A DNA stretch of 64,000 nucleotides, from contig CAXXXF010000015.1 of NCBI GenBank assembly GCA_963667175.2, positions 224,001-288,000 of the forward strand, written 5' to 3'. Each line of letters begins with the position of its first letter. Within the stretch, counting starts at the first letter, position 1. Of this stretch, positions 50,958 to 57,718 are shown in pieces. The translations under genes and the position numbers were made by a program. This DNA comes from Candidatus Latescibacterota bacterium (GTDB lineage: Bacteria; Latescibacterota; UBA2968; GCA-2709665). The notes beneath the pieces were generated by a model, which searched no databases, was not told the origin of the DNA, and was given only the letters and a program-made list of their open reading frames with translations.

Positions 50958-51965
50958 CTATTTCCATTTGAAAACGACGCCCAGCGCGTCACCGGGATCG
51001 TCGGCGAGCATGGTGTAGATTTCCTGGCACTGTTCCGGATCCGCGACGTGGGTGATCAGGTCTTCCACGGGCAACCTGCCCTCTCCCATCAGGCGCATCA
51101 CCAGCGCCCGGTCCCGTTCCTTCGCCCACCGGTAGTAGATGTGATCGGCCTCCGGCGTTTTGGGCTGGTGGGCGCCCAGGATGCTGACTTCCCTCAGGTG
51201 TACGTCGGCCAGAAAATCCATGTCGACGGCGCCGCGCGGGGAACCCAGTGCGACCACACGCCCTGCCGTGCACGCAAGCCGGACGGCGGTGGGATAAACC
51301 GCGGGTTTTCCGGTCGCTTCGATCACGACGTTGGCGCCGTCTTCCACGCAGTGTCCGCCGATCGCGTCCCTGACGTCGTCCACGTCGCCGGGATTGATGC
51401 AGAACCCGGCGCCGCGGCGACGGGCCGCGTCCAGGCGGAAACCGTCCAGGTCGACGGCGATCACCGGGAGGGCGCCGGAGAGCCGCGCGAGGGTCGCCGC
51501 GAGCTGACCGACGATTCCCAGGCCGATGACGACCACGACCTCGCCCAGTTCAATGCGCGCCACACGGATTCCGTGGATGGCGATTGCGCCCATGACCATA
51601 AAGGCGGCGGCTTGCGATGACACGGCGTCGGGGACTTTCCGATGGAAGGACCTGGGGCCCGAGAGGACGGAATGGCTCGCGTGATTCCCCTGTCCGGCAA
51701 CGCGGTCGCCGGGGCGGATGCCCTCAACGTCCCTGCCGACTTCCAGGACCGTGCCGACGTTGCAATAGCCGGCGCCGCGGGGGAAACGGACCGGGTTACC
51801 GGGTTCGCCTCCATGCGTCCAGCCGTGGATCTCGGTTCCGACGCTGACGGCGGTGTACTCGTTTTCGATAAGGACACCGTCATCCGGTACAGGCCCGGTC
51901 TCGAGGGACGCGACTTCCATCCGGCGAATGCCGGGAATGAGGAGACGTCTGGCTTTCATCTGCAA
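50958..51965 (-). CDS. MDR-family (zinc-binding-type) dehydrogenase
   Basis: SVGTE, GYCNVG, GLGIVGQL, IEATG. Confidence 0.88.
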   Translation of the reverse strand: MQMKARRLLIPGIRRMEVASLETGPVPDDGVLIENEYTAVSVGTEIHGWTHGGEPGNPVRFPRGAGYCNVGTVLEVGRDVEGIRPGDRVAGQGNHASHSVLSGPRSFHRKVPDAVSSQAAAFMVMGAIAIHGIRVARIELGEVVVVIGLGIVGQLAATLARLSGALPVIAVDLDGFRLDAARRRGAGFCINPGDVDDVRDAIGGHCVEDGANVVIEATGKPAVYPTAVRLACTAGRVVALGSPRGAVDMDFLADVHLREVSILGAHQPKTPEADHIYYRWAKERDRALVMRLMGEGRLPVEDLITHVADPEQCQEIYTMLADDPGDALGVVFKWK

Positions 51966-52045: not shown

Positions 52046-53083
52046 CTACGCCTGCCCGCGGTCCAGAGTCCCGCGGAAGAGTCGAAGGAAGTTGCCGCCC
52101 CAGACCTTGCGGATTTCGTTTTCCGAGAGGCCGCGGGCGAGCATGGCGCGGGTGAGCCGCACGAGCTTTGAGACGTCTCCGAAAACCGGAGTGGCCGAAC
52201 CCATGCCGTCGTAGTCGGAGCCGATGGCAACGTGGTCGATGCCCACCAGGTCCGCCACGTAACAGATATGGTCGACCATTCGATCCGCGGAAGGGTTTTC
52301 CGGATCGATAAAGCCCGGGAGAAACGCAATCCCCATCACCCCGCCGGCCCCGGCCAGCGCCCTGAGTTGATCGTCGGTCAGGCAGCGCCAGTGGTTGCAA
52401 ACGGAGAAGGCCGCGGTGTGGGTCATCGTTACCGGTAGCGAAGACTGCTCCAGAACCTGGTAGAAAGCCCTGTCGTTAATGTGGGCCAGGTCCGTGATGA
52501 TGCCCAGCCGGTTGCTCTCCTCAAGTACGGCTCTGCCAAAGTCCGTCAACCCGCCGGCGCTTCCGCGTTCCCGATCGCGGTCTTCAGGCGCGCACGGCCC
52601 GAACGGACTTCTGCTGCCCTGCAGCAAGGTCGGGTCGTTACCGCCTTCGCCGTGGGTGATTCCAATGCAGCGAACTCCCAGGCGGTAGTAAAGGCGCAAT
52701 GTGTCCATCTCTCCTTCCAGCCAGCGTCCGGCGCCTTCGATTGTAAGCAGGATGCCGATTTTGCCGGTTTCTCTCGCCCGTTCAACGTCCCGTGACGAGA
52801 ACACCAGCATCAGGTCATCGGGATAGAGCTCCACCGACGCAAGGGTCTGTTCCAGGGTAACCCGGACGTTTGCCGTGGGACCGTTGCCGACCACGAAAAA
52901 GCCGGCGTCGAACCCGCCCTCTTTCATCCGGTGAATGTCCATATGGTAGGCATCGTCCGGTTTTTTCAGGTCCATCGGACGTTCGCCCCGGTGCACGCGC
53001 TCCACGGGCGTGTCGTTGTGGCCGTCGACGATCAGGCACCTGTCGTGGACCGCCTGCGCTTCTTCAAGGGTGATTTCCGGCAT
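52046..53083 (-). CDS. Membrane dipeptidase (M19 family)
   Basis: DGHND, TIEG, DLAH, TH, R.LTD, IGSDYDG, GGNFLR. Confidence 0.92.
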   Translation of the reverse strand: MPEITLEEAQAVHDRCLIVDGHNDTPVERVHRGERPMDLKKPDDAYHMDIHRMKEGGFDAGFFVVGNGPTANVRVTLEQTLASVELYPDDLMLVFSSRDVERARETGKIGILLTIEGAGRWLEGEMDTLRLYYRLGVRCIGITHGEGGNDPTLLQGSRSPFGPCAPEDRDRERGSAGGLTDFGRAVLEESNRLGIITDLAHINDRAFYQVLEQSSLPVTMTHTAAFSVCNHWRCLTDDQLRALAGAGGVMGIAFLPGFIDPENPSADRMVDHICYVADLVGIDHVAIGSDYDGMGSATPVFGDVSKLVRLTRAMLARGLSENEIRKVWGGNFLRLFRGTLDRGQA

Positions 53084-53153: not shown

Positions 53154-54476
53154 CTACGGCGGATCGACGGGTACTTTCTGGTTCTTGCGGACCAGCGGAT
53201 CGTACGTGAATCCGTCGGAGCGTTTTTCGAACTCCGCGCGCGCCTTCTTCAGGAGATCCGGATTCCCGCAGAGATCGATCGCGCTTCCGGCAAAAACCTT
53301 GGCGGTCTGCCGGACGGCGCGTTCGGCGAAAGGCAGGGCGGCCTGCGCGGCCATGTCCCGGTGGTGTCCGGGCGTTCCCTTTGCGTAACAGACCATCTCG
53401 AAGCGACCCAGGGGCGCCAGCCATGAAACATTGTCCTCGTCGGTAGACCCCCTGCCCTGCGAGCCGCTGCCCTTGCCGATCTTCGTATTGAATCCCTTCT
53501 TGAATCCCAGGGCTTCGGCGCGCTCCCTGTCGGCTTCCGTGGGTTTGGGCGGCCCGAAGCGTTTCAGGTTTTCACGTACGATCTCACACATCGCCTTGTT
53601 GGGCAGACGGGGGTATACGGCGGTGATGCGAGACCATTTCATCTTCGTGTCCGTGGCTCTGGCGGCGCCCCGTGCGCATGCGGTGAGACGCTCGCGCACG
53701 TCGTCGACCTGCTTGCGGTCTTTCCCCCGTACGAAGTACCAGATTTTCGCATAGGCCGGCACCACGTTGGGTGCGTCGCCTCCATCGCGGATCACGGAAT
53801 GGATCCTGACGTTTTCGGGGACATGCTCCCGGAGATAGTTGGCGGCAATATCCGTGAGCATCACCCCGTCCAGCGCGCTGCGGCCCCGGTGGGCCGACGC
53901 CCCGTGGGCGGTACGTCCGAAGAATTCGTAGACGACGGAGTCCAGCGACGAACCCCCGAAATTATCGACGCCGGAAGAGTTTCCCGGATGCCAGGCGAGG
54001 CAGGCGTCCAGGTCCCGGAACGCGCCGTCGCGGGCCATATAGACTTTGCCGGCCAGCGTCTCTTCCGCCGGGCAGCCGTAGTAGACGATTTTTCCGGATG
54101 TGCCGGTTGATTCGAGAATCTTCGCAGCGGCGACCGCACCCACGGCCGGGGCAACGCCCAGGAGGTTGTGGCCTCAGCCGTGACCCCATTGCCCCTCCTC
54201 GGGACCGCAGTTGGGCAGCGCATCGTATTCGCCGAGCATCCCTACCGCCGGCTTGCCGGCGCCGCTGGTCGCGCGAAATGCCGTGGGGATATTCTTGAAC
54301 GGGAACTCGACGTCGAAGCCGCGCGAGGCCAGGTAGTCCGCGATGGCCCGGGAGGATTTAACCTCCCGGAACGGCCGTTCCGCCCAGGCGTGCACCCGGC
54401 CGGAGAGGTCCCTGGCCCGCTTCGACTCGGCAGCGACGGCGCGATTGACGAGACGCTTCTTGTCTTTCGGCTTCAT
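53154..54476 (-). CDS. M20D amidohydrolase (AbgB-like) with in-frame TGA at the conserved Cys (putative selenocysteine, residue 101)
   Basis: The ORFs 54174-54476 and 53154-54143 are in one frame: GEYDALP...GHG-TGA-GHNLLG...GCPAEE...WHP...GSTD; family consensus is GHGCGHN. Confidence 0.8.
54140..54173 (-). promoter_or_regulatory. Putative bacterial SECIS element
   Basis: GGGC-GUU-GCCC hairpin with the loop starting 19 nt after the UGA, extended by CC/GG and CCAC/GUGG pairs. Confidence 0.5.
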
Positions 54477-54567
54477 GAGATTTCCCTTTCCATCCTGTCC
54501 ATGTTAATTCCGATTCTTGTACCGAATGTATTATTACGGGGAGTACCGTATCGTTTACATCCTCCAC

Positions 54568-54629
54568 TCTTCTTTGGTGGGCCTGGATGTCGACGATCTG
54601 CCGCTCCTGAGAATAAACGGAAGCTGACA
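54568..54629 (+). repeat. Left half of intron-interrupted dispersed repeat (5' exon; IBS1 GCTGACA)
   Basis: 53/63 match to the reverse complement of 63938-64000. Confidence 0.85.
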
Positions 54630-55390
<761 letters not shown>

Positions 55391-55444
55391 ACTGCTCTTC
55401 CTGACCACTGGCCACTGTCCACTATTTACTGCTCCTGGTATTAA
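55391..55444 (+). repeat. Right half of intron-interrupted dispersed repeat, containing (CCACTNN)3
   Basis: 51/54 match to the reverse complement of 63884-63937. Confidence 0.88.
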
Positions 55445-56529
55445 AGACTCGCGACGGCATCGGCCACCGCATCGCCCGCCTCGCGCGTCTCGGCGGCGCC
55501 TCCCAGGTCAGCGGGGTGGTTCTTCGGACTCTCCAGCGTTCGATCCACGGCGCGGTCAATTGTCTCCGAGGCGGCGGCGGCTTCGGGATCGTTGTGGCGC
55601 GCACCCAGCCAGGACAGCATCATTCCCGCCGACAGGATCTGAGCCATGGGGTTGGCAACACCCTCCCCCGCGATATCGGGGGCGGTACCGTGGGATGGTT
55701 GAAAGACGCCGTAGCGGTCGCCCACGTCCGCGGACGGCGCCATCCCCATTCCGCCGATGGTGGCGGCGGCCAGGTCGGAGATGATATCACCGAACATATT
55801 TTCCGCGACGACGACGTCGTACCAGCCGGGGTTGCGCAGCTGGTACACGGTGAACGCATCCACGTAGGCATAGTCCCGTTCGACGTCGGGATAGGTTGCC
55901 GCGGTCTCGTCGTAGATCTGCCGGAAGAACGCCATGCTCTTCAGAATGTTGGCCTTGTCGACCGAGGTGACGCGGCTGGCGCCGTCCGAGGGCGCTCCCT
56001 TGCGCTGCCTTGCGATTTCAAAGGCGTACCGGACGATCCGCTCGGTGCCGGCGCGGGTGATCACCATGTTGTCCACGGCGAGGCTGTCACCGACGCGAAC
56101 CCCGGCGCCGCGGGAGGCATAGAGGCCCTCTGTATTCTCACGCAGGATGACGTAATCGAGCGGCGGATCTCCATCGAGAAGCGGAGGCACGCCGCGGTAT
56201 TTCTTGATGGGCCGGATCCCGGCGTAAAGGTCCAGTTCGAAGCGGAGCGTCAGTTGGGGCGCGATTTCCGTTCCGTCGGGAAAGCGGACGTCCGGATCGC
56301 CGGCCGAGCCGAAGAGCACGGCATCGGCCTGTTTGCAGGCTTCGAGCGTGGATTCCGGGAGGTCTTCGCCGGTCTCAGCGTAACACCCGGCGCCCACCGG
56401 ATGTTCGGAAAACGTGAATCGAAGGTCGGGATGCGGCTCCTCCAGGGCGAGGAGCACTTTGAGCGATTCCGCGACCACTTCCGGGCCGACGCCGTCTCCG
56501 GGGAGCACCGCAATGTTGTACGTTGGCAT
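55441..56529 (-). CDS. Isocitrate/isopropylmalate/tartrate dehydrogenase family (LeuB-like)
   Basis: LPGDGVGPEV, RENTEGLY, DKAN, NMFGDIISD, PSHGTAPDIAG, ANP. Confidence 0.92.
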   Translation of the reverse strand: MPTYNIAVLPGDGVGPEVVAESLKVLLALEEPHPDLRFTFSEHPVGAGCYAETGEDLPESTLEACKQADAVLFGSAGDPDVRFPDGTEIAPQLTLRFELDLYAGIRPIKKYRGVPPLLDGDPPLDYVILRENTEGLYASRGAGVRVGDSLAVDNMVITRAGTERIVRYAFEIARQRKGAPSDGASRVTSVDKANILKSMAFFRQIYDETAATYPDVERDYAYVDAFTVYQLRNPGWYDVVVAENMFGDIISDLAAATIGGMGMAPSADVGDRYGVFQPSHGTAPDIAGEGVANPMAQILSAGMMLSWLGARHNDPEAAAASETIDRAVDRTLESPKNHPADLGGAAETREAGDAVADAVASL

Positions 56530-56539
56530 TCCCGTCCTT

Positions 56540-57718
56540 TCAGGGGATGAAGTTCTGTGAAGGGCGGCGAGGACGCTGGCGATCGTGAATGCCGATGCGG
56601 AATCCGCCCTCGGACTTCACGCCCCGTTCCAGTACGTCCGGTTCGACGTCGAATCCCGCGCCGGGCGTTTCAGGGACGACCAGCCTGCCGTTTCGCGTCC
56701 GCCATCCGTCCAGGACGATGCCCGGCATGTCCGCGGGGGCCGCTTCCAGGAGGCTGAAGTTGGGAATGGACGCGGCGAAATGGGCATGGGCGTACCGTTC
56801 GATGACGCTGCCCCAGCAATGGGGCGCGCACGTCGCGCCCCATTGCTGGATTCGGTCCGCCGTGGCTTTCCACCAGGTAAGCCCCTTGTCGCGGAAGTCG
56901 TGCTGCACGACGTCAATCCATCCCTTTTCCACCATATGGAAGAAGTCGGGCGGAGGCGGCCCGGATTCACCGTCGGCAACGAGCGTGTCGTAGCCTCTCC
57001 GGTCGATGGCTTCCTTAAAGGCCTCATTGAACGCCCGGTCTTCGGGAAAGGGCTCTTCGAACCAGTAGATCCCCGCGTCCCGGCAGCGTTCGAGAATGTC
57101 CAGTGCGATATTGAGCGTGGCGCCGTTGTTGGCGTCAACGAGAATCTTCGCGTCCGGTCCCGCGGCTTCCCGGACCGCGTGGATCACCAGCACGTCCCTG
57201 TCGGCGCCTTCGCGAACCGGCATCCAGCGCGCGCCGCGCCCGATTTTGATTTTGAAATTGCGGTAGCCGGCATCGCGCCCGGTCCGGACTTCCTCGTGGA
57301 AGATTCGCCGCGCCCCGTCGTCGTTGGTTTCCAGATCGTCAATGTAGATGGAGCCGTCGTAGAGTTCCACTTCACGGGCGCCGCGCGCGCCCAGGAGATG
57401 GAAAAGGGGCGTCCCTTCACATCTGGCGGCCAGGTCCCACAGAGGCAGATCGATTGGCGCGCCCTCGGCGGTTGACCCGCCTGGAAGGTCAAAGAGCGCC
57501 GAGGGGCGCATTCCGAGCAGTGCTTCGGCGCGCTCCCTGTCAATGGCAGACCAGCCGATGCCCACGGCGCCGCCCGTGGTGCAGATGCGCACAACAGGAT
57601 CGGTGACGGCGGGACCATGGACGCCGATGCGGGCGTTGGATCCCACGACGCGCGGGCGCTTTCCGTGCAGTACGACTTTTTCGATCCTGGCGATCGGGTC
57701 GGAAAAAGCAATTGACAT
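56540..57718 (-). CDS. Mandelate racemase/enolase-superfamily protein
   Basis: DLPLWDL, FKIKIG, DAN, WFEEP, DGE, PHCW. Confidence 0.85.
   Translation of the reverse strand: MSIAFSDPIARIEKVVLHGKRPRVVGSNARIGVHGPAVTDPVVRICTTGGAVGIGWSAIDRERAEALLGMRPSALFDLPGGSTAEGAPIDLPLWDLAARCEGTPLFHLLGARGAREVELYDGSIYIDDLETNDDGARRIFHEEVRTGRDAGYRNFKIKIGRGARWMPVREGADRDVLVIHAVREAAGPDAKILVDANNGATLNIALDILERCRDAGIYWFEEPFPEDRAFNEAFKEAIDRRGYDTLVADGESGPPPPDFFHMVEKGWIDVVQHDFRDKGLTWWKATADRIQQWGATCAPHCWGSVIERYAHAHFAASIPNFSLLEAAPADMPGIVLDGWRTRNGRLVVPETPGAGFDVEPDVLERGVKSEGGFRIGIHDRQRPRRPSQNFIP

Follow-up and report, generated by a model that had tools for sequence, protein, structure and literature searches.

A Candidate Selenocysteine Form of an M20D Metallo-Amidohydrolase in Candidatus Latescibacterota

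Metallo-amidohydrolases of the M20D type carry an invariant cysteine in an H-G/A-C-G-H motif, and in the aminoacylase CsAga the cysteine bridges two zinc ions (PMC11511702). In certain known selenoproteins, such as formate dehydrogenase alpha and the [NiFeSe] hydrogenases, selenocysteine (Sec) replaces cysteine as a direct active-site metal ligand (PMC13188914, section 7). The gene described here appears to combine these two features. It is found on the minus strand, at positions 53154–54476, of a 64,000 nucleotide (nt) stretch of a Candidatus Latescibacterota genome (contig CAXXXF010000015.1, positions 224,001 to 288,000), termed the window, to which all unprefixed coordinates refer. The gene is of the M20D type and forms a single frame of 440 codons when TGA is read as Sec; codon 101 (54174–54176), situated at the invariant cysteine of the motif, is TGA. 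The internal TGA is proposed to encode Sec at the metal-binding position, i.e. the locus would be a genuine selenoprotein gene, a reading to which a probability of approximately 90% is assigned.

The closest solved relative is HmrA of Staphylococcus aureus (3RAM), by sequence (E-value = 3e-44, or 1.5e-59 with a profile) and by fold as well (Foldseek TM-score 0.81/0.90). The two proteins have in common the H-x-C-G-H-N motif (GHACGHN), the PAEE and H-P motifs, and the catalytic and dimerisation domains. HmrA differs in having Cys at the UGA/Sec site, the identity is about 26%, and the selenoprotein is about 45 residues longer. Second-closest is human PM20D2, a beta-alanyl-lysine/Xaa-Arg dipeptidase (7YH4, 8XZC; E-value = 2.8e-33, Foldseek E-value approximately 1e-31). 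It also displays GHACGHN at the aligned site, but it is eukaryotic and uses Cys, and its substrate may differ.

An initial annotation made from the DNA letters had labeled the gene AbgB/M20D. The M20D part of the label holds, as the protein matches TIGR01891 of NCBIfam with 186.2 bits (cut-off 153.75; residues 24–373). The AbgB part does not. AbgB belongs with the selenoprotein to the broad M20 amidohydrolase superfamily, but the AbgB-like structure 3IO1 matches at an E-value of only 3.9e-6, over residues 98–307, and is far behind HmrA and PM20D2. None of the six NCBIfam matches is to an AbgB-specific model, and no abgA or abgT neighbors are seen among open reading frames of at least 150 aa within approximately 9 kb. 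Several Cys homologues are called "aminobenzoyl-glutamate utilization protein B" by JGI.

In Pfam, the query sequence matches only PF07687 (M20_dimer), and PF01546 is recorded for many homologues. An AlphaFold2 model built from 28 homologues shows the two-domain M20 fold (pLDDT 90.6, pTM 0.90), with the best Foldseek matches to 3RAM, 7YH4/8ZEL (PM20D2), 6SLF (CsAga aminoacylase), 4EWT, 1XMB and 1YSJ. The predicted ligand set, C/U101, H103, E138-E139, H163 and H371-H372, is invariant across the 28 aligned homologues, and the Cys, His, PAEE and HP motifs align with those of HmrA and PM20D2. By analogy, Sec101 would be a metal-bridging ligand in place of the Cys of solved M20D enzymes; His103, Glu139, His163 and either His371 or His372 are predicted as further ligands.

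The in-frame TGA and its decoding

The gene starts with an ATG at 54476, just upstream of which is the purine-rich sequence GGAAAGGGAAA, and stops with a TAG at 53154–53156. The initial annotation described two open reading frames in one frame that are split by a lone TGA reading GHG-TGA-GHN, and the sequence bears this out: a 100 aa open reading frame (54174–54476) and a 329 aa open reading frame (53154–54143) are present on the minus strand in a common frame. The TGA, in the context WGHG-TGA-GHNLLG, is the sole interruption of the 440-codon frame; further stops and frameshifts are absent and all catalytic motifs are intact. The motifs GEYDALP, PAEE, WHP and GSTD, also pointed out earlier, are all found in the 440-residue read-through sequence.

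Two sets of genomes were compared. The first consists of 61 genomes, the window's own genome (G000) and 60 relatives, with matches taken at an E-value ≤ 1e-40. A match is found in 52 genomes; in 49 of these it contains a single TGA, with identities ranging between 69% and 100%. The second set consists of 168 genomes of the phylum, an orthologue being a match at an E-value ≤ 1e-120. Here 55 of 56 orthologues, from species-level genomes in three families and with 69–100% identity, have a single in-frame TGA. The sole Cys orthologue in the phylum has TGC at the site and 67% identity (genome G059). The TGA clearly exceeds chance, since it occupies the identical codon in 49/49 extracted orthologues of the first set and is found in 55/56 orthologues of the phylum. 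The UGA is conserved as in a bacterial selenoprotein gene, with the flanks WGHG and GHNLLG invariant.

More distant relatives have Cys. A set of 80 named genome loci comprises 23 with TGA and 57 with Cys; every non-TGA homologue has Cys, never Trp. The TGA loci belong to metagenome-assembled genomes of Candidatus Latescibacterota, some of them labeled Gemmatimonadota or simply bacterium. The Cys loci include Kiritimatiellae, Planctomycetota, Lentisphaerae, Armatimonadota, Aminicenantes, Clostridia and Alphaproteobacteria. The best 80 loci of a metagenome scan consist of 4 with TGA and 76 with Cys, and TGC and TGT both serve as Cys codons in distant relatives. Cys is thus present at all 57 and 76 loci of the more distant relatives, and the 25 full-length database homologues with a retrieved sequence (66–77% identity) all show C at the site. 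The alternation of TGA and TGC among relatives, named at the outset as a check, is seen, and with 55 TGA genomes the codon is not specific to one strain.

The 49 TGA orthologues (L024–L072) terminate with TAG or TAA and none with TGA, while the Cys form L073 ends in TGA; because the orthologues are related, the TGA-free terminators do not represent independent counts. In a separate observation, the Cys-form metagenome contig L156 shows an in-frame TAG near codon 351, where DEDNVSWLAP has its conserved Ser; this copy may be decaying, or the stop may stem from faulty assembly.

The window genome (5.52 Mb, 18 contigs) carries the Sec machinery that the initial annotation had proposed to look for. 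The selA (551 bits), selB (355 bits) and tRNA-Sec (73 bits) genes adjoin on contig 6 and selD (360 bits) is present as well, all above curated cut-offs. TGA is not reassigned in this genome, because it terminates 718 of 1246 long frames with high GC3 (58%) and is the commonest ordinary stop. Across the phylum, selB exceeds the cut-off in 128/168 genomes, and in 53/55 of those with the TGA form; the two TGA-form genomes without a selB match are 84% and 91% complete. No selB match is seen in the genome with the Cys form, G059, or in its congener G055, which are 86% and 90% complete, respectively. These are the two genomes of genus g14 of family f3, and the pattern in this genus fits a replacement of Sec by Cys as the Sec trait was lost.

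Four further genes of the window genome have one in-frame TGA each at a classical Sec position and are probable selenoprotein genes, judging from sequence. These are selD (contig C13, 163286–164209), an FdhA-like gene with the context CSRA-U-HAPTV (C16, 77163–77900), a SelW-like gene with CAA-U (C18, 216149–216364) and a redoxin with U-P-T-C, a UxxC motif (C7, 196395–196670). In selD and the FdhA-like gene, a GGUC(U) apical loop is found at +18/+19 from the TGA. An AhpC/TSA-family match with a TGA (C4, 86808–87299) reads FRGTW-TGA-RRSRRQ and is not accepted as a selenoprotein. A genome-wide scan for tetraloops past in-frame TGAs that resemble a selenocysteine insertion sequence (SECIS) gave 53 candidates, nearly all of them arginine-rich wrong-frame noise; only selD and the M20D gene appeared real.

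These data bear on the possibility of a selenium-free read-through of the UGA, with a near-cognate or suppressor tRNA inserting Trp or Cys and the conserved RNA downstream acting as a general stimulator. Insertion of Sec is inferred, and three folds compete for the downstream element (see below), which leaves some room for such an explanation. However, the TGA form and selB occur together in 53/55 genomes, the phylum's single Cys form is in a genus without selB, Cys, the analogue of Sec, is present in every non-TGA homologue and Trp in none, and TGA stands at classical Sec positions in selD and in the FdhA-like, SelW-like and redoxin genes. Selenium-free read-through is considered very improbable.

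Selection on the coding sequence was estimated by the Nei-Gojobori method as the ratio of nonsynonymous to synonymous rates (dN/dS) for pairs with an estimable dS; the most distant pairs are saturated in dS and give no ratio. Codons 102–440, past the TGA, show a dN/dS of 0.05–0.13 in 9 pairs, and codons 1–100, before the TGA, show 0.08–0.22. The segment past the TGA is under strong purifying selection, and the relaxed selection that would have spoken against decoding is not seen. The amino acids of codons 102–111 (GHNLLGVAPA) are invariant or nearly so in 49/49 sequences.

An in-frame GTG at 54143, 10 codons past the TGA, opens the second open reading frame, and could allow translation to stop at UGA101 and restart, yielding polypeptides of 100 and 329 aa that assemble into an enzyme. 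Such a split gene is disfavored because codons 102–111 lie between the TGA and the GTG: they would be left untranslated, the predicted ligand His103 included, yet they are conserved in all 49 sequences. Moreover, the GTG is preceded by GCCCCGGCC, which contains no purine-rich ribosome-binding sequence, and the frozen synonymous sites described below start upstream of the GTG. The probability of a split gene is judged to be very small.

The locus could also be a pseudogene, an ordinary Cys-type M20D gene struck by a nonsense mutation, with the two open reading frames as decaying remnants. Standard pipelines treat the gene in this way, and databases hold only truncated products of 320–336 aa. 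A decaying gene is not in keeping with a TGA that persists in 55 genomes of species rank whose proteins are as little as 69% identical, nor with the low dN/dS downstream, the absence of extra stops or frameshifts and the intact catalytic motifs, and this explanation is given even less weight. An error of sequencing or assembly is practically excluded, as the TGA is present in 55 genomes, in 4 more metagenome contigs and in other public runs, which have no listed difference at the site.

The independent sequence includes a 2287 nt contig from another public run, which covers the gene from end to end and shows 25 differences; none of those listed falls at 54174–54176. Contigs of other public runs carry the same codon as far as the listed differences extend, so the TGA recurs in independent sequence, as had been asked of it. 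The public runs with this stretch are mostly labeled as sponge, marine or plain metagenomes, or carry coded organism names.

The RNA element downstream of the UGA

Synonymous diversity was expressed as the fraction of sequence pairs that share a residue and differ in its codon. The gene-wide mean is 0.47. In codons 107–114 (54135–54158, minus strand; +16 to +39 nt from the UGA; GGC GUU GCC CCG GCC GYR GGU GCG) the mean drops to 0.039, against a median of 0.476 across 433 eight-codon windows. No other window has a lower value, and the eight with the least diversity all overlap these codons. At codons 115–116, the third position is only C or U, situated opposite G in hairpin H3 (see below). The constraint appears tied to the TGA, because two of three Cys forms of the same peptide lose it. 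Three Cys loci encode the identical peptide GVAPAVGA; two of these (L162 and L164) differ from the consensus at 7 of 8 codons, and the third (L156) at 2. These loci also use GTG or GCG where Sec forms permit pyrimidines only. Codons 107–114 are read here as the footprint of a recoding signal, and it is concluded that a SECIS is probably located within +15 to +45.

Three hairpins can be drawn in this segment, all on the minus strand. Hairpin H1 (54149–54159), GGGC-GUU-GCCC, has 4 base pairs (bp) and a loop at +19. The four pairs are invariant, and among 49 sequences the loop is GUA in one and ACA in one. The spacing of the GUU loop matches that of the GGUC(U) loops in the selD and FdhA-like genes of the window genome. 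H1 alone yields −5.4 kcal/mol, and its mean pair probability over 40 distinct sequences is 0.27. Hairpin H2 (54131–54148), CGGCCGY-RGGU-GCGGUYG, consists of 7 bp with a 4 nt loop from +33. It is present in the RNAalifold consensus, with 99.6% of cells paired, and varies between G-C, G-U and A-U at one pair and between C-G and U-G at another. H2 alone yields −10.0 kcal/mol, with a mean pair probability of 0.63 over the 40 sequences. Hairpin H3 (54129–54158; +16 to +45) is a long stem with two bulged U residues and, for the window's own sequence, is the fold of minimum free energy (MFE). It begins and ends where the constrained stretch does, with 93.5% of cells paired, but its two apical pairs are broken in 24 and in 4 of the 40 distinct sequences, respectively.

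The bacterial SECIS model calls for a loop of 3–9 nt, a stem of 4–16 bp, a G in the first two loop positions, a spacing of 16–37 nt and an MFE ≤ −7.5 kcal/mol (PMC13188914 Fig. 2). Under this bSECISearch model (as given in PMC13188914), H2 alone among the folds fits on all four published criteria, with its 4 nt loop and early G, 7 bp stem, 32 nt spacing and −10 kcal/mol. H2 is the best single SECIS candidate, and it may be the hairpin bound by SelB. It differs from the loops of the selD and FdhA-like genes in displaying RGGU at +33 as opposed to GGUC(U) at +18/+19. It also departs from a plain SECIS in that H1 occupies the space between the UGA and H2, and the long H3 fold competes with it.

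The initial annotation had described the GUU hairpin as SECIS-like. The hairpin is present as described, at 54149–54159 with a loop G 19 nt past the UGA, but the segment does not fold beyond chance, and H1 by itself falls short of the published energy of −7.5 kcal/mol, which the neighboring 7 bp H2 reaches along with the other criteria. A lower stem, CCAC (+3 to +6) with GUGG (+31 to +34), is present in the window but is not conserved, as 33/49 sequences have GCA, GCG or GTA in place of GTG; its pair probability is 0.01 in the window's own sequence and 0.01 on average over the 40 sequences.

According to the proposed mechanism, the RNA element within approximately 45 nt downstream would recruit SelB with Sec-tRNA(Sec) at UGA101. 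Sec would be inserted at position 101 and translation would run on to the TAG at 53154 to give the 440-residue product. Several points weigh against a Sec-encoding TGA and its proposed signal. The incorporation of selenium into the protein is itself deduced from sequence evidence, and the role of residue 101 as a metal ligand comes from homology. The 51 nt stretch past the UGA folds like its shuffles (z = 0.12; 108/200 shuffles are at least equal), and covariation is not significant, the score of H1 plus H2 being reached by 52/500 shuffles and that of H3 by 500/500. Apart from a double change at one pair (A-U in 3 sequences), the element is almost invariant, and covariation cannot choose between the folds. 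The three folds compete, and neither H1 (pair probability 0.04) nor H2 (0.14) is favored in the window's own sequence. In one orthologue (L046), the H1 loop is ACA and lacks a G. The Cys form L156 retains 6/8 of the constrained codons and is still SECIS-like, thus the link between constraint and TGA rests on the two clearly diverged Cys loci. For the independent contigs, there are 54 further differences beyond those listed. Finally, the metatranscriptome contigs that extend over the TGA end 25 nt past it, fewer than the 31 needed for bridging, and DNA carry-over is possible in such libraries. Two metatranscriptome runs, from one study, provide contigs on both sides of the TGA and are not counted as transcription. 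On balance, decoding of the UGA as Sec is favored by the machinery, the conservation of the TGA, the selection downstream and the independent assemblies.

Evolution and genomic context

Sec and Cys forms were placed on a FastTree tree of 116 rows and on a quick IQ-TREE tree of 54 rows, from which 62 near-duplicate Sec and distant Cys rows were dropped; both trees are unrooted save for a chosen outgroup. The Sec/Cys label requires 5 changes on the FastTree tree and 4 on the IQ-TREE tree, where at least 3 are forced by well-supported branches. Two Cys proteins (P0003 and P0004) nest inside a clade of Sec forms that has 99% support. Within this lineage, a Cys form probably gave rise to the Sec form on one occasion, with several later returns to Cys. 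A single gain with several reversions is the simplest account, because the downstream nucleotides are nearly identical in all Sec forms.

A gene for an M19 membrane-type dipeptidase (52046–53083, minus strand; PF01244, E-value = 2.3e-80) is situated 70 nt downstream of the selenoprotein gene and is a probable operon partner. It directly follows the gene in the orthologous loci of family f1, the family of the window, and not in those of the sister family f2. The flanks also carry a Zn-dependent dehydrogenase gene (50958–51965), a gene of the isocitrate/isopropylmalate dehydrogenase (Iso_dh) family (55441–56529) and an MR_MLE (enolase superfamily) gene (56540–57718), all on the minus strand. The gene order in the window's family is MR_MLE, Iso_dh family, selenoprotein gene, M19 dipeptidase and Zn-dependent dehydrogenase. 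In f2 the flanking genes are at least partly kept, the Zn-dependent dehydrogenase throughout. The arrangement suggests one catabolic cluster that includes the selenoprotein gene. Since the protein is related to HmrA and PM20D2 and has this gene neighborhood, hydrolysis of dipeptides or N-acyl amino acids is suggested, i.e. the product may be a dipeptidase or an N-acyl-amino-acid hydrolase.

The spacer between the Iso_dh family gene and the selenoprotein gene is filled by a group II intron of approximately 910 nt without a long open reading frame (54531–55440, plus strand), antisense to both genes. It matches RF02003 (100.7 bits) and RF00029 (40.9 bits), with the Rfam matches at 54656–54794 and 55243–55321. 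In the closest relative (L025) the spacer measures approximately 53 nt. The genome carries at least 7 copies of the intron at 98–99% identity and approximately 9 copies of a 765 nt variant of 92% identity, and several copies are split by an insertion of approximately 1.8 kb.

Relation to known selenoproteins

The Sec-type M20D family is apparently uncatalogued. An inventory of 119 prokaryotic selenoprotein families of May 2026 (PMC13188914, Table 1) has no M20, peptidase or amidohydrolase entry, and the terms amidohydrolase, M20, peptidase, hydrolase and aminoacylase are absent from the text of that paper. The same terms are absent from the main texts of the deep-Sep and BSepDB papers, whose supplementary family tables could list the family. 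Term counts for amidohydrolase, hydrolase, M20, aminoacylase, acylase and deacylase give no occurrences in the counted text of the GOS, Olavius and 2022 review papers, and "peptidase" likewise has none in the counted text of the selenoproteome papers. Literature searches that combined selenoprotein with amidohydrolase/M20, hippurate hydrolase, aminobenzoyl-glutamate, carboxypeptidase or dipeptidase gave nothing relevant. The top match for selenoprotein, amidohydrolase and M20, PMC5658510, only notes that Campylobacter avium is without selenium metabolism, and is irrelevant here. NCBIfam release 20.0 contains no selenoprotein-specific model for the M20D gene. In a collection of 5.8 billion proteins, the TGA forms appear only as truncations of 320–336 residues, one of which is named "peptidase dimerization domain-containing protein". 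As the gene calls are truncated in this way, the annotation of at least 55 species-level genomes, and of many metagenomes, either lacks the enzyme or mislabels it.

To our knowledge, the selenoproteins described so far are nearly all redox enzymes, and the choice of Sec over Cys is usually discussed in redox terms. The family reported here is quite likely the first described Sec metallopeptidase/amidohydrolase family, a non-redox enzyme in which a selenolate would bridge two catalytic metals, with one gain in marine sponge-associated Latescibacterota and repeated reversion to Cys, including where the Sec machinery is not found. If this is true, selenium would tune Lewis-acid catalysis or metal selectivity and not redox chemistry. 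A hydrolase with Sec between two Lewis-acid ions would be a different test case for Sec versus Cys. Natural Sec and Cys versions exist at 70–77% identity, hence metal affinity, selectivity, pH profile and oxidation resistance are directly comparable. Selenoprotein catalogues and the training sets of predictors would likewise gain an entry.

The nearest parallels among selenoproteins are the alpha subunit of formate dehydrogenase, with Sec bound to Mo or W, and the [NiFeSe] hydrogenases, with Sec bound to Ni. The likeness consists of Sec as a metal ligand, which is a prediction in the present case. However, formate dehydrogenase alpha and the [NiFeSe] hydrogenases are redox enzymes with redox-active metals, whereas the product of the M20D gene is a hydrolase, with Sec predicted to bridge two Lewis-acid ions.

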